Source: Escherichia phage MN05. Taken from it: a stretch of DNA of 64,000 nucleotides. The notes under the pieces were generated by a model. That model ran no database searches and had not been told where the DNA came from. It saw only the letters and a program-made list of their open reading frames with translations. Location: sequence record NC_070987.1; one strand, given 5' to 3'. This document shows positions 35,051-48,840 of the stretch, one piece after another. A program made the position numbers and the translations under genes. Each line of letters opens with the position of its first letter. Positions within the stretch are counted from its first letter, which is position 1.

Positions 35051-36895
35051 CTAGTGAGTATTCATCCAATTTAATCCAATCTGACAATCAGAAGCCAGAG
35101 GACATTCCATATTCAAATACTCACCAGCCTTCTTAACACAAAGCTCGGTGTGCTCTTTGAGTTTCTGTACATCGTTACGATTAACTGAGAATTGACCTTC
35201 ATCGTGCATATCAATTACCTTAGCACAACGAACTCCATCCCTCTCAATCCACTTGTTTAGGAACATCATAGCATATTTCATAACAACAGCACCAGCACAT
35301 TGCAGGAGTGTGTTAAGAGCTTTATGAACCATAACTTTACCAGTTGCATCTCGTCTCATTGTAATCTTACGACCATCAACACCAATCAAGTATCCCTGAG
35401 CAGCCTTTTCTGTCATACGATCAATGAGGATTGCAATACATGGGTTCTCTGCCAAGAAACGTGCCCGCATCACTGAACCTTCGTCAGCCCCACCACCCAC
35501 AATTGAACCGAGCTTAGCATCACCAGCACCATAGTTGAATGCGTAGATAAATGTCTTAGCGTTGTCGCGAGTAGGAAGACCAGCAAGTTTCTGGTTGTGG
35601 GAGTGGATATCACCTTCAAGGAGAATATCACGATACATAATAGCAGAAGCTAAACCACGTTCTGCCAGAGCTTTCTTAGCTGGGTTGTTCTCTTCGATTG
35701 CCTCAGCAAGCATATCCCTACACTCTTTAATGAGGTAGTGAGCGAGCATACGAAGTTCAAGTCCAGAACCATCATACCCTAAGAATACTTCTTTACCAGC
35801 GGGTATGTAATATTTGTAAGCACCTACAGGTTTGTCTTTCTTCCCCGGCTTACCTTTCTCATAAATTACGTTAGTACCTTTTCGTATATAACAACCATCA
35901 GGAACAACGTTAGTAATAACGAAAGGACGAGAGTGATCACTGTCTGAGTTATAGTCAGACTCAAACAAACTGCGACACTCATGACCAAACAAACCACGGG
36001 AGGGAATATTAACCACGATACGATGTTTGAATCGAAAAGTCGGCGTAGCGCAGCTGTTAGCTTCTGCCGAAAGTTTACCATCTTCGCGTTCCTTTGCTAT
36101 GAGTCCACTGATAAGACCTAGCCTGTGAGCCGCTACAACGCGCCTCTTAAGCAAACTTCCGACACTCCCTAGCTCACCCCCTAACCCCTCTTCAAGAGTC
36201 TCCTCGAGGTTTGTAGGAGCTGTAGGCCACTTGTTTGAGGTAGCTAGTGCTATCTTAATCTCATCAAAAGTGATAGGTCTACGTCGGTTAGGGTTTAAAC
36301 CTAAACCAAACACATAAGCCTTCATATAGTTCTTAGTTTTAAACCTAAAATGCTTCTCTAAGAACTTCCTAATATCAGCGTCAACCATCTCGGCTGTCTG
36401 TTTCTTTTTAGCATTACCTTGTATCCAAGCTGAATACCACGCTTGATATGTTCCATACTTTCTTATATCTTTCTTAATTTCAAAAGTATTCCAAGGTTTC
36501 TTTGATACGTTAAACTCTGGAGGAAGAAAACCCTCATCCATAAGGGCTTCTTTAACTCGTGCATCTTTCGATGGGTCAAAGTCTACGTACTCTACACAGG
36601 TGAAAGCTCCACCAATGTCTTCTCTCTTCAGCCCAACCCTATCACAATAGGCTTGAGGCCACTTCTGTAAAGCTCCAGACTTCTTAAACGGCTTCATGTA
36701 AGTAGAGCCATCTAATCTCATCTTAGGTAAGAGAGGAATCAACTCTCTGTCAATATTAACAATAATCTCTTTAAGGAGGTGAACATACCACCGAGCATTT
36801 CTTCGGTTGAAACTCACTCCGTGCTTTGCTTGCTTAGAGATTATATCAGCGACAGTCATCTCTGTCAAAAATGGAAGAGCGTCCGGGTTGCTCAC
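35051..36895 (-). CDS. DNA polymerase, family A polymerase domain (T7 gp5-like), lacking the exonuclease domain
   Basis: 614 aa; YDGSGLELRMLAHY (motif A), RDNAKTFIYAFNYGAGDAKLG (motif B), VIDMHDEGQF (motif C); C-terminus ends ...GLNWMNTH like T7 gp5. Confidence 0.8.
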   Translation of the reverse strand: MSNPDALPFLTEMTVADIISKQAKHGVSFNRRNARWYVHLLKEIIVNIDRELIPLLPKMRLDGSTYMKPFKKSGALQKWPQAYCDRVGLKREDIGGAFTCVEYVDFDPSKDARVKEALMDEGFLPPEFNVSKKPWNTFEIKKDIRKYGTYQAWYSAWIQGNAKKKQTAEMVDADIRKFLEKHFRFKTKNYMKAYVFGLGLNPNRRRPITFDEIKIALATSNKWPTAPTNLEETLEEGLGGELGSVGSLLKRRVVAAHRLGLISGLIAKEREDGKLSAEANSCATPTFRFKHRIVVNIPSRGLFGHECRSLFESDYNSDSDHSRPFVITNVVPDGCYIRKGTNVIYEKGKPGKKDKPVGAYKYYIPAGKEVFLGYDGSGLELRMLAHYLIKECRDMLAEAIEENNPAKKALAERGLASAIMYRDILLEGDIHSHNQKLAGLPTRDNAKTFIYAFNYGAGDAKLGSIVGGGADEGSVMRARFLAENPCIAILIDRMTEKAAQGYLIGVDGRKITMRRDATGKVMVHKALNTLLQCAGAVVMKYAMMFLNKWIERDGVRCAKVIDMHDEGQFSVNRNDVQKLKEHTELCVKKAGEYLNMECPLASDCQIGLNWMNTH

Positions 36896-40456: not shown

Positions 40457-41113
40457 TTAACTCTCCAAAGTTTTCTTCAGAGCTGCCCACGAGATTGGGT
40501 AGAGCTTAGCCATCTCTTCATCCAGAGATTGAGCAAACACTCGAACTTCATATTGAGCGTGAGAGGAAAGTCGCTGACGACACAACTCAAACCAGCCATA
40601 CAAAGAACCAGTCCACACCCACTCAGTGATCATCCCCTGAGGAAGAACAAATCGAGCTTGCTCTGGTGCAACAAATTCAATCAACTTATCATATGCTGCT
40701 AGAGAGGCTTCATATGCATCGTTAATCAACATTAATGCTTCAGCTCGTTCTCCATTGATGAGTTGAATCCCTGAACCTGCATGGAGGTCCGAAGGTCTCG
40801 CAAAAATCTCTTTAGGGATGAAGACTTCAACTGCTCCATCTTTATACCGCCGGGACATTTCGTTCCACGAGAATCCAACCTGATGCTTGCCCAACTGTCT
40901 CGCAATTGCGATAGGTGCTTTGCATCGGAAACTGACTTGCGGGTGTCGGAATGGGGTAACATGCTTCTCTCTTGCGAGGAAGTTGATGAGACGTTCATCA
41001 CGTTCATTTAAATCACCTTCACGGGTTACGCCAAAGGAAACTCGAGCTGCGTTTACTACGCTACGATCACTTCCCATAGCTTCGATTAATGTTGCTTGTA
41101 ATTGTTCATTCAT
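40457..41113 (-). CDS. thyX: flavin-dependent thymidylate synthase ThyX-like
   Basis: 218 aa; AARVSFG...HVTPFRH, KHQVGFSWNEMSRRY and QARFVLPQGMITEWVWTGSLYGWFELCRQR...HAQYEVR match ThyX blocks, with KHQ in place of canonical RHR. Confidence 0.65.
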   Translation of the reverse strand: MNEQLQATLIEAMGSDRSVVNAARVSFGVTREGDLNERDERLINFLAREKHVTPFRHPQVSFRCKAPIAIARQLGKHQVGFSWNEMSRRYKDGAVEVFIPKEIFARPSDLHAGSGIQLINGERAEALMLINDAYEASLAAYDKLIEFVAPEQARFVLPQGMITEWVWTGSLYGWFELCRQRLSSHAQYEVRVFAQSLDEEMAKLYPISWAALKKTLES

Positions 41114-41128
41114 CCGTGAATTTCCTTA

Positions 41129-41344
41129 TTAATATTCCTTGATTGGAGAAACTACAAAACCACCCAGAACTGACATATGGGATTGTCTTAAACTTACCGT
41201 ATTGACAGGCATTGGTACAACTTTTAAAGCTTTCTTGAAACGACGAGCCTCTTTTCTGGTCTTAAAGTTTTCTGAAAAAGGGACTGGATTGTCCCCCACG
41301 TAATACACCACTGTCCAGAAATATTTAATCTTTTCCATATTCAC
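41129..41344 (-). CDS. small protein, paralog family B
   Basis: 71 aa; FKTRKEARRFKKALK and C-terminal ...KEY resemble the tandem trio at 43200-43815. Confidence 0.4.
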   Translation of the reverse strand: MNMEKIKYFWTVVYYVGDNPVPFSENFKTRKEARRFKKALKVVPMPVNTVSLRQSHMSVLGGFVVSPIKEY

Positions 41345-42241: not shown

Positions 42242-42820
42242 TTAGTAAGACACGTCACCACTTGAATGGGACATGTTGCTCTTGACGAAGTAGCAATACT
42301 TGCCAAGACCTTCATTAATTTCTTGAAGCATACTCTGATCGACAGGGTAGGTGGCTAAATCGCCATCAAACTCATCCATCTTCTCAATAATACACATCAA
42401 GGTCATGCACATATCAGAGAGCATACCGTCCATATCCAGATCAGCATTACCCTCTGAGAACCAAGCATGAGAGATGTAGTTAGCTGCTGTAGCATCCACT
42501 TTAACACAGTGGTAACGCATACGTTCAGCAATACGATCTCCTACCTGTCGTGCGTAATCTTCCAGCTCATCAAACATACCATGAACACCCTGAAATCCTG
42601 CACCAGAGACGTTCCAGTGATAGTTTTTAGCTTTGATATGCAAGAGTTCCATGTTAGCTTGTAAGCAGCTCAGGATGTGTTCTAGGCTATTTCCGCTAAT
42701 CATGCCTTGCATCGTTTCAAGGCGAGAGATTGAAAGCTCAGACCGGTCTAACATGTTATATTCTGCACGACCAATCTCAGGTAAATCAAAGACATTCTTA
42801 TGCATTTGGCTTTTCTCCAT
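42242..42820 (-). CDS. Dps/ferritin-like protein
   Basis: LQANMELLHIKAKNYHWNVSGAGFQGVHGMFDELEDYARQVGDRIAERM matches the Dps signature (K..N.HWNV.G..F...H..F.E.Y......D..AER); start taken at an internal ATG. Confidence 0.55.
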   Translation of the reverse strand: MEKSQMHKNVFDLPEIGRAEYNMLDRSELSISRLETMQGMISGNSLEHILSCLQANMELLHIKAKNYHWNVSGAGFQGVHGMFDELEDYARQVGDRIAERMRYHCVKVDATAANYISHAWFSEGNADLDMDGMLSDMCMTLMCIIEKMDEFDGDLATYPVDQSMLQEINEGLGKYCYFVKSNMSHSSGDVSY

Positions 42821-43127
42821 CAAGTTCAACTGAATTAGCAACGTTACGTTCCAGATTGTCAATTACCTGCTGGGTAATTACGATGCAGTTCTGTGGGTCT
42901 ACTGACTTAGAACGCCCCATTTCAGGGTCATACACCTTAACTCGCTTAGCAGTTGAACCTGTAACCTGAAGAACCTTCAACAGATACCCCTGATTACCAA
43001 TAGACCAAGCAACAACATCACGATTCTTGATAAAGCGACCAAGCATATCACGATGATAAAACTGTTGCATCACCTTGGATTTTGTAATCTCTTCAGTGGG
43101 CGGGGCCACTTTACTCAAATCTAACAT
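42798..43127 (-). CDS. hypothetical protein
   Basis: 109 aa ORF downstream of a promoter-like element. Confidence 0.3.
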   Translation of the reverse strand: MLDLSKVAPPTEEITKSKVMQQFYHRDMLGRFIKNRDVVAWSIGNQGYLLKVLQVTGSTAKRVKVYDPEMGRSKSVDPQNCIVITQQVIDNLERNVANSVELDGEKPNA

Positions 43128-43166: not shown

Positions 43167-43200
43167 TATACATTTGAGAGTTATCATATCTACTACCAAT
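43167..43200 (-). promoter_or_regulatory. putative promoter ATTGGTAGTAGATA-N11-AAATGTATA (minus strand)
   Basis: bipartite element with spacing identical to the plus-strand copy at 31861-31894; about 40 nt upstream of the ATG at 43127. Confidence 0.4.
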
Positions 43201-43409
43201 CAGTAGTAAATTACTTTAGACATAAAAGAACCAGTGTTAGGGTCTTCATACCAGCGATGTATGTCAGCGCTTTTTACTATTGTGCCCAGAGTCTTCAACT
43301 GTTTCTTAGCAATACGAGCCTCTTTGCGAGTGTCAAACAATTTGATGCTATCTTTTCTCATGTGTTGCTCAAGATCCCAAACAACATGAATAGCCCACAT
43401 CTTTTTCAT
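43200..43409 (-). CDS. small protein, paralog family B
   Basis: 69 aa; FDTRKEARIAKKQLK ... KVIYY. Confidence 0.4.
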   Translation of the reverse strand: MKKMWAIHVVWDLEQHMRKDSIKLFDTRKEARIAKKQLKTLGTIVKSADIHRWYEDPNTGSFMSKVIYY

Positions 43410-43618
43410 TAGTAATGCACCTTTCCGCTGATATAAACACGACCAGAAGAATACTCCTTGGCCTTATGGATACTGATACTATTGACCACGTCACCAGTAA
43501 GCATAGTCTTTTTAAAATCTCGAGCTTGTTGGCGAGTGGGTAGTGCAGTCATAGTCATGCCACCTGATGCCCACTTAATCTTTGCTAACCAAAATTTTCT
43601 CATAGTGATTGGTCTCAT
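43409..43618 (-). CDS. small protein, paralog family B
   Basis: 69 aa; LPTRQQARDFKKTM ... GKVHY; start overlaps the stop of its neighbour. Confidence 0.4.
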   Translation of the reverse strand: MRPITMRKFWLAKIKWASGGMTMTALPTRQQARDFKKTMLTGDVVNSISIHKAKEYSSGRVYISGKVHY

Positions 43619-43815
43619 TAATAATAAACCTTGCTGTTGGCAAAAAGAGCACCTTCGTTATTCACGATAGCTTTACCAATACTAACCTTGTTAAACCTAA
43701 AAGTAGATTTGTATTGATTTTTGACCCTACGGGCGTGCTCTCGAGTATTAACAAAATCTACAGCTACTAACTCTCCAGTCGTGTTATCATGTACACGAAC
43801 AATCCACTTTTTCAT
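43618..43815 (-). CDS. small protein, paralog family B
   Basis: 65 aa; VNTREHARRVKNQYK ... SKVYY. Confidence 0.4.
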   Translation of the reverse strand: MKKWIVRVHDNTTGELVAVDFVNTREHARRVKNQYKSTFRFNKVSIGKAIVNNEGALFANSKVYY

Positions 43816-44018: not shown

Positions 44019-44552
44019 TTACACACCTTTAGATGCAACTACACCTTCAGAGTTATTATAACGACCCTTCACTGCATAGGAATGTTCCCCTGCATGAGAG
44101 TGCTCAAACATCACCATCTGACCAACACGCATACCAGCACGAACTCGTAAGCTGTGGTGCTTGGTTACGTTATGGAACTCAAATGTCAGCTTACTGCTAT
44201 TGAATCCAGCGTCTGCCCATCCAGCGTGGAGGTGATTCAAACCACAACGAGCCATAGACGAACGCAGAACAAACAGGCTTGAGATGTTATCTGGAAGGTT
44301 AAACTCCTCCATAGAGTGAGCCAAGAAGAACTGACCCGGAGTGATAACCAAACCCTCTTCAGGAATCTTTACTTCCTTCCACTGAAGATTCTCTTTCGCA
44401 TCAATATCAACGATGCCATCAGCCTGTTCTTCAACAAGGATAGTATCACCAATACGGATATCCACACTAGCAGCGTTAACATACTTATGCTCCGCATTCA
44501 GATAGCCATTGTCAATTACATCGTGCAGTTCAATACTTCCTAGTAAACTCAT
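44019..44552 (-). CDS. dCTP deaminase-like (Dcd/dUTPase-fold) protein
   Basis: 177 aa; ASVDIRIGD and HAGWADAGFNSSKLTFEFHN resemble Dcd family motifs. Confidence 0.55.
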   Translation of the reverse strand: MSLLGSIELHDVIDNGYLNAEHKYVNAASVDIRIGDTILVEEQADGIVDIDAKENLQWKEVKIPEEGLVITPGQFFLAHSMEEFNLPDNISSLFVLRSSMARCGLNHLHAGWADAGFNSSKLTFEFHNVTKHHSLRVRAGMRVGQMVMFEHSHAGEHSYAVKGRYNNSEGVVASKGV

Positions 44553-44561
44553 TCTTATTCC

Positions 44562-45860
44562 TTAGTTATTTGTTTCTACGTCAAAAGAGATTCCACGACC
44601 CGCCTCATCGGCAAACCGAACTGTACGGGTTTGAGGTTCTAATATTTCAGGGTTGTCAGCAACAAAGCGATCAGCGAGACTCTGGTTGACAGTCTCAGCG
44701 AGTTCCCCATGAGAAGGAATATCAAAATCACCAACAGCGAAACCCTGACCAGAGAACTGACGTGCACTAACAGTCAAACCATTTGATTGACCATTAGAAC
44801 GTCTAGACAACCATCGCCCAAATGAATCGCTAGTAACACCAAGAGCTTCTTCAAAAGATGTTCTCCGGGTAGAGCTTAGGTTTCGTGCTTCGTTTGCTCG
44901 ACGTCTTGCAGGGGCTACAAACACCCCTTCAACTGCATTGTGCCGATTAGGTTCATCTTCTCGACCAAGGAGATCTCCTCCTGTATTGGTTGTTAAGTTT
45001 GTCAACCCTTCAGACCAATACGCACTAATCTGACTAGATCCATGAACACTTGACATTAACTGGATTTCTTCATAAGGGATTCCAAAGAATCGACTCATGT
45101 CTTGGTCAACACAATATTGAGGACTTGCTGTGTCGCCAATAAGAGATACTTGACCTTGGTTATTAACCAGATCCCTGACCATCTGAGGTATAGGTTGTTG
45201 CCGAGCATGTGCCATATAATGAAAAGCAACTCCCGGGGTTTGGAACCTTAACACTTGTGAGTTAGGCCACTTCTTGTGGACATATTTAATCTCTCGAGCA
45301 GTCACAACCACTGGAATTGGAGAAGTCATAGCCAAGTATCCATGAACGGTCATGAATAGCTTATCAAGAGTCATAGCACCACGACACATCATAGGAAAAT
45401 TATCTAGAACCTCTTCGATAGAGGTGGGATAGTTAAACATGAATTGGATTCGCGTTCCATGCCACTGAAATTCAATGATATCAGTGAATGTTAATTGAGA
45501 AGTTCCTGCATATGGCTCATCTGTAGCTTCAGCAAGGAGAGACGAATACTCAATATCTTGTGACTCAAGCCACTCTTTCACATTGCTTTCAAGTTCGCTC
45601 CCAAGAGCTTGCCAACGGCCCACTGAAGTGAAAGTGTTTTGTGTTCTTGGTGTTTGCCCTCTGACGATAAAGATATCAATGTCGTGCGGAGCTATGTTAT
45701 TAATAACAGCATCACGAACAGCCCCACCAGTAATGATAGGGCAAATACCGTCTGGAATCAAGTTGTTGTCAATTAATTGTTCAATGAAGTGACGACCAAC
45801 AGTGATATCAGGTTGTTGAGCAACCTTATCTTCAATTTGGTTAATCGGGATAACAATCAT
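44562..45860 (-). CDS. nucleotidyltransferase with CCA-adding-enzyme/poly(A)-polymerase-type head motif
   Basis: about 432 aa from MIVIPINQ; ITGGAVRDAVINNIAPHDIDIFIV matches GGAVRD-x9-DxD of class II tRNA nucleotidyltransferases; remainder without recognisable motifs. Confidence 0.5.
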   Translation of the reverse strand: MIVIPINQIEDKVAQQPDITVGRHFIEQLIDNNLIPDGICPIITGGAVRDAVINNIAPHDIDIFIVRGQTPRTQNTFTSVGRWQALGSELESNVKEWLESQDIEYSSLLAEATDEPYAGTSQLTFTDIIEFQWHGTRIQFMFNYPTSIEEVLDNFPMMCRGAMTLDKLFMTVHGYLAMTSPIPVVVTAREIKYVHKKWPNSQVLRFQTPGVAFHYMAHARQQPIPQMVRDLVNNQGQVSLIGDTASPQYCVDQDMSRFFGIPYEEIQLMSSVHGSSQISAYWSEGLTNLTTNTGGDLLGREDEPNRHNAVEGVFVAPARRRANEARNLSSTRRTSFEEALGVTSDSFGRWLSRRSNGQSNGLTVSARQFSGQGFAVGDFDIPSHGELAETVNQSLADRFVADNPEILEPQTRTVRFADEAGRGISFDVETNN

Positions 45861-45861
45861 T

Positions 45862-46416
45862 TTACATTTTCCAATATAATGAAGGTGGGTCGTAAGGGTC
45901 AAATCCTGTGAGTTCACACAAGTATTTATAAACCTTAACAGTTAAGTTAACGTCCTGTTCACAGTAAGTAAACATATCTTCAGTGAAAGCATCCCATGCT
46001 TCCTCTTGCTCACCGTAATCTCCTTTAAGTTCCTCTAAGAACTCACCCCATTGCTTCAAGCCGTGACCTCTTGGGCCATGTCTAGGGTCACCTTTCGGAT
46101 ACTCAGGACTGTCACCAATACGGTCAGGTTTAAGATATCGACTAAGACACAAGGTGTCGAAGACGTTAAAACGATATTTAATCAGATTGGGATACATCTT
46201 CTTCAGAGCTGGTAAGTCGAAGTCAATAATGTTATGACCCACGAGCACATCAGCTTCTGTAAGTTTACGAATCCCATCTTCAATTTGGTGAGGCCGATAG
46301 CCCCACCTTTCACCAGTTTCAACATCGAAGATGTAAATACACCATACTTTAGTTATGTCATCGTACAGTGCATTACTCTCGATATCAAATGCAAACACTT
46401 TCTTTTTCTTTACCAC
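45862..46416 (-). CDS. DNA polymerase 3'-5' exonuclease domain (T7 gp5 N-terminal-like), separate gene
   Basis: 184 aa; [11 protein letters not shown]...YRP...[12 protein letters not shown]...FDTLCLSRY...[15 protein letters not shown] parallels the T7 DNA polymerase N-terminal exonuclease region. Confidence 0.75.
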
Positions 46417-48200
46417 GGTGAAGCTCCATCTGCTTGGTTGACGAGAGAAGCTGCATCCTCTCCGTTAGTTAAAACGAATGGATTATCTTCATCAACTTCA
46501 AAGTCTTCCCTTTCTACAAGTCTCCCGGTTTCACTGATATACTTAGTATAACAGACACCTGTCTGACCGTAGTTACGTTCTTTCAGTAATCTAATGACTG
46601 AGAGGTTCTTAGCTAAGCCGTCAGCTTGCTTGTCACGCTCAAAGCCAATGATACACTGACACCAACGCATAAGAGAACGAGAGCCAGTGAACTGTACTTC
46701 ACGTACCTGTCCACCTTCTTCATGAGGAGCACCACCTGCCGGAGCATTAAGGTGAGATAGAACGAAAGCGGTAAAGTCTAACTCTTTACACATACCAGCA
46801 AGCTCGGAAGCGATCTTACTGATTTCAGTGTTAATCTCTGAAGGTGTTAAATGAGATACCAGAGCGGTAATGTTATCAAGGATGATGAACTTACACTGGT
46901 TTTCAACTACCCAGAAACGGATACACTGTTTAATGTCTTCCCATTCGTTCTGCCCAAAGTTGTCATATAAGAAGAACTTATCTGCATAACGAAGTGCTTC
47001 ATTACGCAAATCCTCCTCATCATATTCAACATCAGGTCGGTGGAAAGGAATTGATGCTGACTTACCAGCAATGTTCTTAACAGACATGCCTACCTTCTCT
47101 TCCAAGAAGAAGCCACCTCCATTAAAACCATGCTCTAAGCACAGATGAGCAACTAGCTCGTGAGCAATGAGTGTTTTACCACTCCCTACTCCACCACCAA
47201 TTGCTACCACCTCTCCCCATCGAATACCGAAGGTCATCTCATTCAGAGTCTTCCACGGATATGGGATACCCCACTCCGCTTTCTTCAGAGCATCATCAAG
47301 GCAATCAAAGATTGTTACAGCACCAGCAGGAGATTCCCGCTTTGCTGAATACTTGAGAATGTTGAATAACTCTTGACCACGACCAGACAGAAGCATGTCA
47401 TTCGCATCCTTAATCTCTTTCTCCACACCGTTGTATGGGAAAGTTCCTTTAGGAATACGAGCAAACTTGACATGAGGGAATAAAGAACGACCTTTTGTTA
47501 AAGCTATCTCACCTGCATCATCGTTGTCCATGCAGAGCACAACCTCCTCAAAACCATTTACGAAGTCTCGATTACGAGACAACACAGAAGAGATTGAACC
47601 TGCACCGAACGGTAAAGAAACACATGCTGGTTTAATGTTTGTTGCATTTGTAAAAGCTGTAAGGACATGGAAACCTGACATACAGGATAGCGGGTCTTCA
47701 AAAATGAAGAGCTTCTTGTTGTACACATCTCCACGTTGAGCTTGTGCCATACCGAATAAATCTGCTTCTTTCACACTGCCGACGTAATAGAACTTCTTAC
47801 TATCTAGCAGCTTAACCTCGTATCCGACAATGTTTCCATCACGTTCACGAGGAAAGAAGTAACTGTCTGGTGTCTGACCATCAGTTTGACTGAGGCCAAT
47901 ACGACACTCAAAACGCTCTGATACGGCTTTAGGGATTAAACGTCGAGTAAGTTCGCCCTGAGGAAGCTCTAAGCAATCATCTAAGACTTCTCTTAACTCT
48001 TCAGGGGATAACTCTTTCTTCTCGTTTGGAGTAGGTGTAGTGCCCTTTTCGAACACTTCGTAATTCCCACAACGGTTACAACTCCCCCACTCCTCACCTG
48101 TCTCTTCGTTACGGAAGAGAATCATGTGGTTGTGGGTTTTATCACGACCATGAGAGATACATTCCTTACAACCTGTGTCTCCCAAAATGATCTTTGACAT
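46410..48200 (-). CDS. primase-helicase (T7 gp4-like)
   Basis: 596 aa; N-terminal Cys4 zinc-binding region, central primase-like region, helicase Walker [10 protein letters not shown] and Walker [11 protein letters not shown]. Confidence 0.8.
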
Positions 48201-48226: not shown

Positions 48227-48430
48227 TTAGTAGAACGAACGAATTTCATCCCACACTTGTTCCTGTTCTTTCCTATAAAAAGAAAGTTGGGTCTTGAACA
48301 TCTCCACTGATGATTCAAAGTTTTTAGATTGTGCAGCTTCAACGAAACGTTCATGTCGGTTGATTTTGCACCGTAGCATTAGATACTTGGCTTCAAGTCT
48401 CCGAAGAGCCTGTCTTTTCTCAAGATTCAC
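48227..48430 (-). CDS. hypothetical protein
   Basis: 67 aa ORF. Confidence 0.3.
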   Translation of the reverse strand: MNLEKRQALRRLEAKYLMLRCKINRHERFVEAAQSKNFESSVEMFKTQLSFYRKEQEQVWDEIRSFY

Positions 48431-48839
48431 TTTTCAGATACTCTGACCAGTCGCCAGATTCAACCAGAACGTCTTGTTCTTCGTCAATGTGATAAATCCA
48501 AGCGATAACAGTTTCACCTGAGTCCAGCTTAACGGCAATCTGGGTGCGTTGATAGAAGCTGTCTTCAGGGCTACGTTTGTTGTAACCTTCCAGTCGGTCA
48601 TATGGGCCTTCCAGACCTGCTTTGTCAGTAGCAAACACTTCTACACGAACAGGCTTATTGTTATTGCTGTGTGCGAGAGAGATGCTTGGGAAGTAGGAAC
48701 CACCATAACGGAACAGATCAAAGTTGTCTTCAGTCCAACCTTCACCAATTGACTTAGCACCAGCTCGGTCATTAACTAGATAGTTAGCTTGACCACGACG
48801 AAGAGAACCATAAGTTGCTACGTAAATTACTTCTGACAT
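48420..48839 (-). CDS. gamma-glutamyl cyclotransferase-like (AIG2/GGCT fold) protein
   Basis: 139 aa; N-terminal ATYGSLRRG and central PYDRLEGY resemble the YGSL motif and catalytic Glu context of GGCT-like enzymes. Confidence 0.55.
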   Translation of the reverse strand: MSEVIYVATYGSLRRGQANYLVNDRAGAKSIGEGWTEDNFDLFRYGGSYFPSISLAHSNNNKPVRVEVFATDKAGLEGPYDRLEGYNKRSPEDSFYQRTQIAVKLDSGETVIAWIYHIDEEQDVLVESGDWSEYLKSES

Positions 48840-48840
48840 T

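Follow-up and report, generated by a model that had tools for sequence, protein, structure and literature searches.

Gad2, the second anti-Gabija protein of SPbeta-like Bacillus phages, is a predicted nucleotidyltransferase (NTase); SPbetaL7 without Gad2 becomes sensitive to Gabija, and a Brevibacillus homologue suffices to block this defence. Among phages of Escherichia coli, gp74 of SU10 was named a nucleotidyltransferase with a class II CCA-adding enzyme domain and was represented by one peptide in proteomics (SU10 paper, 2014). Here we analyzed the corresponding gene of Escherichia phage MN05, a phiEco32-like podovirus of E. coli (genus Kuravirus, subfamily Gordonclarkvirinae), within a stretch of 64,000 nucleotides (NC_070987.1), referred to throughout as the window. 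The gene is not new: the CCA-head label has stood on SU10 gp74 since 2014, GenBank, RefSeq and UniProt already label the gene as a nucleotidyltransferase (GenBank with a class-II CCA-adding enzyme domain), and UniProt entry A0A858HY55, “Nucleotidyltransferase [Escherichia phage MN05]”, is 100% identical to its product. An earlier reading of the window by a model, made from the letters and their open reading frames (ORFs) alone (the sequence-only reading), had singled out this gene, and its finding is ordinary as a discovery because the annotation already exists. What is new in this analysis is the head-only group of NTases and its link to Gad2, the replication-gene neighbors of the relatives, and the fast divergence of the gene compared with its flanks. 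We conclude with high confidence that the protein is a stand-alone, class-II-like catalytic head of the Gad2 superfamily and not a CCA-adding enzyme.

Structure of the MN05 nucleotidyltransferase

In the AlphaFold2 model (29 homologues), residues 1-282 are confident and residues 283-432 have a predicted local distance difference test score (pLDDT) of <50 throughout. CCA-adding enzymes rank top in a Foldseek search with this model, and in structure comparison TENT5 (7.8), CdnE (7.4), Pol beta/lambda (about 6.5) and MenT (5.8) score below the CCA heads. The sole Pfam family match is PolyA_pol (PF01743), at 16.4 bits (E 0.012) and so below the 23-bit cut-off; close homologues score 20.2-21.7 bits, and only the distant homologue P0063 reaches 24.2 bits. 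Structure comparison, Foldseek and PolyA_pol agree with the sequence-only reading in placing the protein in the Pol-beta superfamily with the class-II CCA/poly(A) polymerase (PAP) head as its closest type, and the structure comparison gave no placement outside that superfamily, the outcome which that reading had named as contrary to its own.

The peptide on which the sequence-only reading was built, ITGGAVRDAVINNIAPHDIDIFIV, is present as described (G45 G46 A47 V48 R49 D50, nine residues, then D60-I61-D62). Its GG turn and metal-binding DxD carboxylates constitute motif A, which aligns with motif A of solved CCA-adding enzymes. In the family alignment G45, G46, A47, R49, D50, D60, D62, I63 and F64 are invariant, and six of these positions (G45, G46, R49, D50, D60 and D62) are invariant in the 29 homologues at identities down to 23%. 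Judged by this invariant motif and by the match to PHROG 12715 “nucleotidyltransferase” (E 7e-225), the family assignment is far above chance. With an invariant GG...DxD site and a domain that evolves under purifying selection, the protein is probably an active enzyme.

The head fold and motif A are shared with CCA-adding enzymes and PAP I (PDB 3aql, 1miv, 4wby, 3h37 and 1ou5); unlike these class-II enzymes, the MN05 protein is head-only, lacks motifs B and D and has a disordered C-terminus. Profiles of the NTase family align to the solved CCA enzymes over motif A and the preceding helix only, a phmmer search of the protein against PDB sequences gave chance matches only, a look-up by identical sequence returned no record, and scans with NCBIfam and PADLOC gave no match. 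The neck, body and tail domains of CCA enzymes were not detected by Pfam, and neither RRD nor [ED]DxxR is present in the sequence of the folded region (residues 1-282). In class-II enzymes the RRD of motif B recognizes the ribose 2'-OH and the EDxxR of motif D templates CTP and ATP. At the place that we take, from the established class-II motifs rather than from a tool alignment, to be that of motif B (RRDFTINA), the protein has FPMMCRG without an RRD; in family alignments the positions taken as motifs B and D carry LDNFPMMCRG and PIPVVVTAREIKY. Since RRD, EDxxR and the tRNA-binding neck, body and tail are missing, we do not regard the protein as a CCA-adding enzyme. A match to the minimal NTase antitoxins (MNT, NTP_transf_2, PF01909), which are paired with a HEPN gene, was found in none of Pfam, NCBIfam and PADLOC, and the neighbors of the gene are replication genes; the bilobed CD-NTase or cGAS-OAS-like fold with a C-terminal helical lobe was likewise not seen.

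The conserved core (residues 1-205) is the part that the protein has in common with the minimal phage NTases of ~200 aa and with Gad2. Besides motif A it contains a beta-strand around Q139, whose counterparts by hhalign are YQxIF in minimal NTases and LQxIH in Gad2, and the FPMMCRG segment, in which F155 is invariant and P156 and C159 are nearly so and for which Gad2 has FDFTVCMG and minimal NTases have FDxGLCK in the alignments. A basic motif with nearly invariant Y193, K196 and K197 ends the core, and its counterparts are R..KY..KGY in Gad2 and H.PR.Q.KFP in minimal NTases. The helical extension that follows (AlphaFold2 helices 209-220, 247-259, 263-269 and 281-290) is conserved within Kuravirus only, at 74% identity to SU10, and can hardly be aligned with other genera. 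Lysine is absent from the tail, Arg makes up 10.7% of it and its net charge is -6, and both its length and its sequence vary between genera; a basic, RNA-binding tail was considered and rejected on account of this net acidic charge. Tails of relatives in other genera are likewise rich in S, T, R, G and N, and several close with a short stretch of hydrophobic or aromatic character, for example SRFSFN, RVSFS or EYDF. In the distant homologue P0063 the final residues are EDNLEDLLPF, which resemble the C-terminal tip of bacterial SSB. The statement of the sequence-only reading that the remaining ~350 residues show no motif thus needs division: ~220 residues belong to a conserved folded domain, and ~150 form a disordered tail.

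The gene boundaries were settled from the start codon. A longer ORF (44562..45917) holds an in-frame ATG at 45860, from which the protein starts MIVIPINQ, and this start lies 1 nt past the TAA stop of the upstream ORF. Every NTase homologue begins at the same Met, and this invariant M1 together with the spacing from the upstream stop identifies 44562-45860 as the correct gene, which the sequence-only reading had given with a product of ~430 aa.

Phage relatives and Gad2

Word-indexed searches returned Gordonclarkvirinae-type proteins only, in which the N-terminal ~220 residues are conserved (33-40% identity between genera) and the C-termini, of 60-260 residues, are unalignable. Identity across Kuravirus phages is 76-93%, the 4.3-kb stretch around the gene matches ~70 Kuravirus-type phages at 93-95% identity, and the gene was found in 96/97 related phage records. 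An exhaustive HMMER search with a profile of the N-terminal domain against 1.8 billion representatives (E ≤ 1e-3) gave 540 relatives, ~28 of them over the full domain; among the matches listed, the more distant ones are for the most part stand-alone proteins of 190-240 aa. The six motif-A positions named above stay invariant throughout the family, with Q139 and F155 conserved as well. The nearest relatives outside Gordonclarkvirinae are PHROG 1614-like phage NTases of ~200 aa (HMMER E 1e-12 to 1e-6), including phi92 gp158, Bordetella phage BB8 p30, Caulobacter phage Lullwater gp13 and Aeromonas phage phiAS7 H6UK10. The MN05 protein itself matches PHROG 1614 at E 3.4e-7, and hhalign of the Kuravirus clade against the small NTases gave 99.7% (E 4e-26). 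It carries the features of the phage head-only group (GG..DxD, hQhh, F[DP]xxhC and a basic K[FYW]P over a core of ~200 aa). The small NTases are core-only, whereas the MN05 protein adds a helical extension of 75 aa and a disordered tail of 150 aa. The relatives are spread patchily over unrelated lineages (Kuravirus, phi92-like myoviruses, Autographiviridae and Casjensviridae). The MN05 NTase represents the branch found in Gordonclarkvirinae within a large family of head-only NTases that are mostly encoded by phages, and Gad2 is the only relative of this family to have been studied experimentally.

Precomputed Pfam annotation places PF26128 “Gad2” on many Kuravirus homologues and distant relatives, as a “weak” match on homologues 82-91% identical to the MN05 protein (P0009: 82%) and as a stronger one on P0063. 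We rebuilt a Gad2 profile from the supplementary sequences of the Gad2 paper as a hidden Markov model (HMM) of 11 sequences. Compared profile to profile with Gad2, the Kuravirus clade gave probabilities of 95.6% (E 1e-8), 95.1% in a second hhalign run (E 3.5e-8) and 91.4% with a strict set without intermediate sequences (E 9e-7). These alignments span 117-134 columns (residues 22-199) and stop at Gad2 residue ~161-166, and the reversed-sequence control gave 0.8%. The small NTases gave 98.7% against Gad2 by hhalign. The NTase has the Gad2-like motif series hhAGGxh...DhDhF, hQhh, F[DP]xxhC and R..KY, with GGAVRD where Gad2 has GGxITS. The two genes differ in setting: Gad2 is encoded in the anti-Gabija locus of temperate Bacillus phages and the MN05 NTase in a replication operon. 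Going by the profile comparisons, the MN05 NTase is a remote homologue of the Gad2 catalytic domain, in the same superfamily and on a separate branch or in a separate family.

Divergence and gene order

Amino-acid identities were compared between MN05 and SU10, Bas88 and contig L004, respectively, for the NTase and its neighbors. The primase/helicase is 99.8%, 94% and 83% identical, the exonuclease subunit of the DNA polymerase 96.2%, 79% and 69%, and the dCTP deaminase 99.4%, 92% and 85%. The NTase core is 86%, 35% and 36% identical; its extension and tail are 74% and 69% identical to SU10, respectively, and unalignable to Bas88 and L004. Synonymous divergence (dS) and its ratio with nonsynonymous divergence (dN/dS) were estimated by the Nei-Gojobori method. 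Neighboring genes have dN/dS of 0-0.14 at dS of 0.07-0.29, the NTase core has 0.11-0.17 at dS of 0.5-0.74, and the tail has 0.24-0.43 at dS of 0.23-0.26; the NTase dS is 3-7x that of the neighbors. The NTase is a rate outlier in a conserved block, with a core under purifying selection and a weakly constrained tail, and its core alleles are far older than the neighboring genes or have been exchanged between phages. This divergence pattern is common at the phage-host interface and is no proof of positive selection.

The order of primase/helicase, exonuclease subunit, NTase and dCTP deaminase (Table 1) is the same in every member of Gordonclarkvirinae examined, distant metagenomic members included, and bears out the description of the gene as embedded between replication genes, with the first two upstream and the deaminase downstream. 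A promoter and terminator scan around the NTase gene gave matches at chance level only. The family-A polymerase of MN05 is split into the 184-aa exonuclease subunit and a 614-aa polymerase subunit (35051-36895, minus strand), whose genes are separated by ~9 kb and about 20 other genes, in the same layout as in SU10 (gp75 and gp51). Given this separate subunit, we rejected an interpretation of the NTase as the polymerase domain missing from the split PolA. Four small ORFs of 65-71 aa that appear to be paralogues also lie on the minus strand nearby (41129-41344, 43200-43409, 43409-43618 and 43618-43815), three of which form a tandem array immediately after the dCTP deaminase gene; all four share a motif TR(K/Q/E)(E/Q/H)AR..(K/F)K (FKTRKEARRFKKALK, FDTRKEARIAKKQLK, LPTRQQARDFKKTML and VNTREHARRVKNQYK).

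Table 1. Features of the NTase gene and of related genes in the window
Feature	Coordinates	Strand	Evidence
NTase coding sequence, 432 aa + stop	44562..45860	-	ORF list, invariant M1, PHROG 12715
Conserved catalytic “head” core, class-II CCA/PAP type, residues 1-205	45246..45860	-	
Motif A, residues 45-64, GGAVRDAVINNIAPHDIDIF; GG turn and DxD carboxylates D60, D62	45669..45728	-	
Beta-strand TRIQFMFN, residues 136-143, invariant Q139	45432..45455	-	AlphaFold2 strand E136-143, hhalign
FPMMCRG, residues 155-161, family motif F[PD]xxhC	45378..45398	-	
Basic motif REIKYVHKKWP, residues 189-199, end of core	45264..45296	-	hhalign
Helical extension, residues 206-282	45015..45245	-	pLDDT 76-92
Disordered tail, residues 283-432	44565..45014	-	pLDDT <50, composition
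T7 gp4-type DNA primase/helicase	46410..48200	-	PHROG 239 E 1e-175; Pfam DnaB_C, Toprim
Family-A DNA polymerase 3'-5' exonuclease subunit	45862..46416	-	Pfam DNA_pol_A_exo1 1.9e-9; PHROG 38876/403
dCTP deaminase, directly downstream of NTase	44019..44552	-	Pfam DCD 3.7e-34; PHROG 1663
tRNA-Arg, anticodon TCT (reads rare AGA codon), 3' CCA encoded	62778-62853	-	

Possible functions

Tentatively, and with less than even confidence, we favor the reading that the NTase is a template-independent 3'-end nucleotidyltransferase that acts in phage-host conflict during replication. The enzyme would be expressed together with the replication genes, for which we count the 1-nt spacing to the exonuclease gene and the recurrent adjacency of relatives to primase/helicase and PolA genes. 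It would extend a free 3'-OH from (d)NTP by a single nucleotide or a few, without a template, the likeliest acceptor being a nucleic-acid end made during replication of the linear phage genome, and the added nucleotides would alter the molecule that is sensed by a host defence or nuclease (DNA-end or nucleotide-sensing, of the Gabija type). The variable tail could act as a flexible tether or as a region that binds a partner. The NTase would in this case be a counter-defence or host-interaction enzyme rather than one of tRNA maturation, and it is for its fast divergence and its kinship with Gad2 that we prefer a role in conflict with the host to one in tRNA maturation. We also count in its favor the patchy spread of the relatives over unrelated phage lineages and the unusual resistance of Gordonclarkvirinae to the defences tested that the BASEL paper reported.

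Several observations weigh against this preference. The NTase is a fixed, syntenic core gene of the replication operon (96/97 records), and anti-defence genes are more often accessory. Its high dS points to allele exchange or old divergence, its dN/dS is well below 1, and the shared synteny of some relatives may come from common ancestry and not from functional coupling. The acceptor could also be RNA, protein or a small molecule instead of DNA. The homology to Gad2 is remote, as the 11-sequence HMM gives the MN05 protein 2.3 bits and many small NTases 25-79 bits, and the folded C-terminal half of Gad2 (~200 aa) is absent from the MN05 protein, whose C-terminus is disordered and unrelated. Our literature search found neither a functional study of a Kuravirus NTase nor a mechanism for Gad2, which was still described as unknown in February 2026.

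A more far-reaching proposal, which we consider rather unlikely, is that the Kuravirus NTase and, by extension, the ~200-aa NTases and Gad2 cap or tail DNA 3' ends, with nucleotides added to replicating linear phage genomes that would keep end-sensing host systems (Gabija, RecBCD-dependent and similar defences) from engaging these ends, or that they perform the activating step of a novel DNA modification made together with the neighboring amidoligase/ATP-grasp cluster.

It is also possible, though on balance rather unlikely, that the NTase is an accessory enzyme of replication, a terminal transferase working with a T7-like replisome on DNA ends, primers or concatemer junctions as a housekeeping activity independent of immunity. 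Its fixed place between the PolA exonuclease subunit and the dCTP deaminase in all Gordonclarkvirinae examined and its start 1 nt past the exonuclease stop fit such a role, as do the loci of small homologues: the phi92 gene directly follows PolA, that of Bordetella phage BB8 lies between primase/helicase and DNA polymerase, and those of Curvibacter P26059A and Caulobacter Lullwater adjoin primase/helicase and polymerase. In Achromobacter AchV4 the small NTase adjoins dUTPase. We also searched IMG/VR for loci with a 9-sequence alignment, which gave 28 non-redundant loci, and assigned their 139 neighboring ORFs to Pfam families; DNA_pol_A was the commonest family (12), followed by DnaB_C (9), 5'-3' exonuclease (7) and Toprim (7). 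A primase/helicase lies ≤1 kb from the NTase in 10/28 loci and a replisome gene ≤3.5 kb in 13/28, which leaves 15/28 with no replisome gene within that distance. Against a replisome component also speak the contrast between a primase/helicase 99.8% identical (to SU10) and an NTase that falls to 35% between genera, which would be unusual for such a component, and the lack of a gene of this kind in most T7-like phages, which replicate nonetheless. Anti-defence genes, too, are scattered among the replication genes of T7-type genomes, and adjacency therefore cannot separate the replication and conflict views. A metagenomic subgroup stands apart in its setting: P0090-like NTases of ~210 aa (loci L007 and L016-L021) are not beside replisome genes and are followed immediately by genes for an AAA_28 ATPase and a FolE2-type GTP cyclohydrolase I, a setting that hints at a link to nucleotide or 7-deazapurine metabolism.

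Less probable, in our estimate, is a role in a hypermodification pathway together with the dCTP deaminase and/or the cluster of amidoligase, COOH-NH2 ligase, GATase and ATP-grasp genes, by which resistance to restriction would be explained. No DNA-modification pathway is known to use an NTase with a class-II head, which we count against it. The BASEL paper reported strong resistance to restriction-modification (RM) systems and proposed the locus of dCTP deaminase and nucleotidyltransferase as a possible DNA-modification system, and this report is one of the points in favor. Recognition-site counts in the window (observed vs expected) are another: EcoRV (35 vs 20), EcoKI (9 vs 7) and EcoP1 (106 vs 120) sites are not depleted, and the reported RM resistance is therefore not due to site loss for those enzymes. 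CCWGG (2 vs ~100), PstI (0 vs 20), SacI (0 vs 23), KpnI (0 vs 13) and GATC (148 vs 306) are strongly avoided, which argues against a general protection of the DNA; EcoRI sites are also reduced (8 vs 23). The cluster itself is of the phiEco32 type and occurs in the MN05 window at 49541-57995, and the minus-strand region 48420-57995 also encodes a gamma-glutamyl cyclotransferase, with an ATP-grasp protein that is RimK-like. In at least six IMG/VR loci (L022, L023, L025, L033, L034 and L042) the NTase is immediately preceded by genes for ATP-grasp, amidoligase, COOH-NH2 ligase and GATase proteins, and the small NTase directly downstream of the amidoligase set in several unrelated contigs supports a connection; many homologues, however, are found in phages without the cluster, and the order of cluster, NTase and replisome may reflect inheritance of the synteny and not a functional link. 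In those contigs the small NTase is followed by primase/helicase and PolA. MN05 encodes both a ThyX-type thymidylate synthase (40457-41113, minus strand) and the dCTP deaminase, and with ThyX in the phage the deaminase is simply explained as a supply of dTTP; the pair is consistent with a dTTP boost for a genome of 42% GC rather than with dU replacing T. We do not favor the hypermodification reading. The replication region further encodes a Dps/ferritin-like “DNA-binding protein” (42242-42862, minus strand; Pfam Ferritin on orthologues), which was found at 36% coverage in particle preparations of SU10 (SU10 proteomics). This protein is a candidate DNA-coating protein and could bear on restriction resistance.

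Repair or addition of tRNA 3' ends (CCA), which the sequence-only reading had put among its suggestions, is improbable. It has in its favor the resemblance of the head to CCA-adding enzymes, the domain name in GenBank annotations and the tRNA gene of the phage, whose presence that reading had stated correctly. This gene, however, lies 17 kb off and encodes its own CCA, E. coli has its own Cca enzyme, and no tRNA gene lies ≤5 kb from the NTase in any of the 28 IMG/VR loci or in five annotated phage loci. With PolyA_pol below its cut-off, no RNA-binding, neck, body or tail domain detected by Pfam, only about 280 residues folded, and RRD and EDxxR missing from the folded region, both the protein and the distribution of its relatives argue against tRNA repair.

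RNA 3' tailing of the poly(A)-polymerase kind, by which host or phage transcripts would be marked for decay or stabilized during the shift to replication, appears no more probable than tRNA repair. In PAP I, RNA binding depends on a C-terminal region that is disordered, and an Arg-rich stretch of the NTase tail (residues ~317-356) can be likened to the C-terminus of PAP I; the tail is nevertheless net acidic (-6) and not conserved, RNA-binding domains are not detected, and the genomic association is with DNA replication genes. Least probable is synthesis of a nucleotide signal or decoy (CD-NTase/OAS-like), again a suggestion of the sequence-only reading, or nucleotidylation of a host factor: weak PADLOC “oligonucleotide-cyclase” matches on distant relatives (E 0.025-0.056), the action of Gad2 on Gabija and the regulation of Gabija by nucleotide levels point that way, but class-II heads score clearly above CD-NTases in structure comparison, the MN05 protein has no PADLOC match, and its model shows no C-terminal helical lobe of the sort by which the active site of CD-NTases and OAS is completed.

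The NTase is kept in essentially every Gordonclarkvirinae phage, a group of common therapeutic candidates against E. coli that are unusually resistant to defences, and its family has hundreds of phage members. If the proposal of DNA-end capping or of modification were true, the Gad2 class of anti-defence enzymes would have its first mechanism, and an amidoligase-linked modification would explain restriction resistance despite the sites present in Gordonclarkvirinae genomes. Gordonclarkvirinae that plate on K-12 exist (BASEL Bas86-94), and their orthologue could reveal the role of head-only CCA-type NTases and show whether 3'-end nucleotide addition is a general counter-defence or replication strategy of phages.

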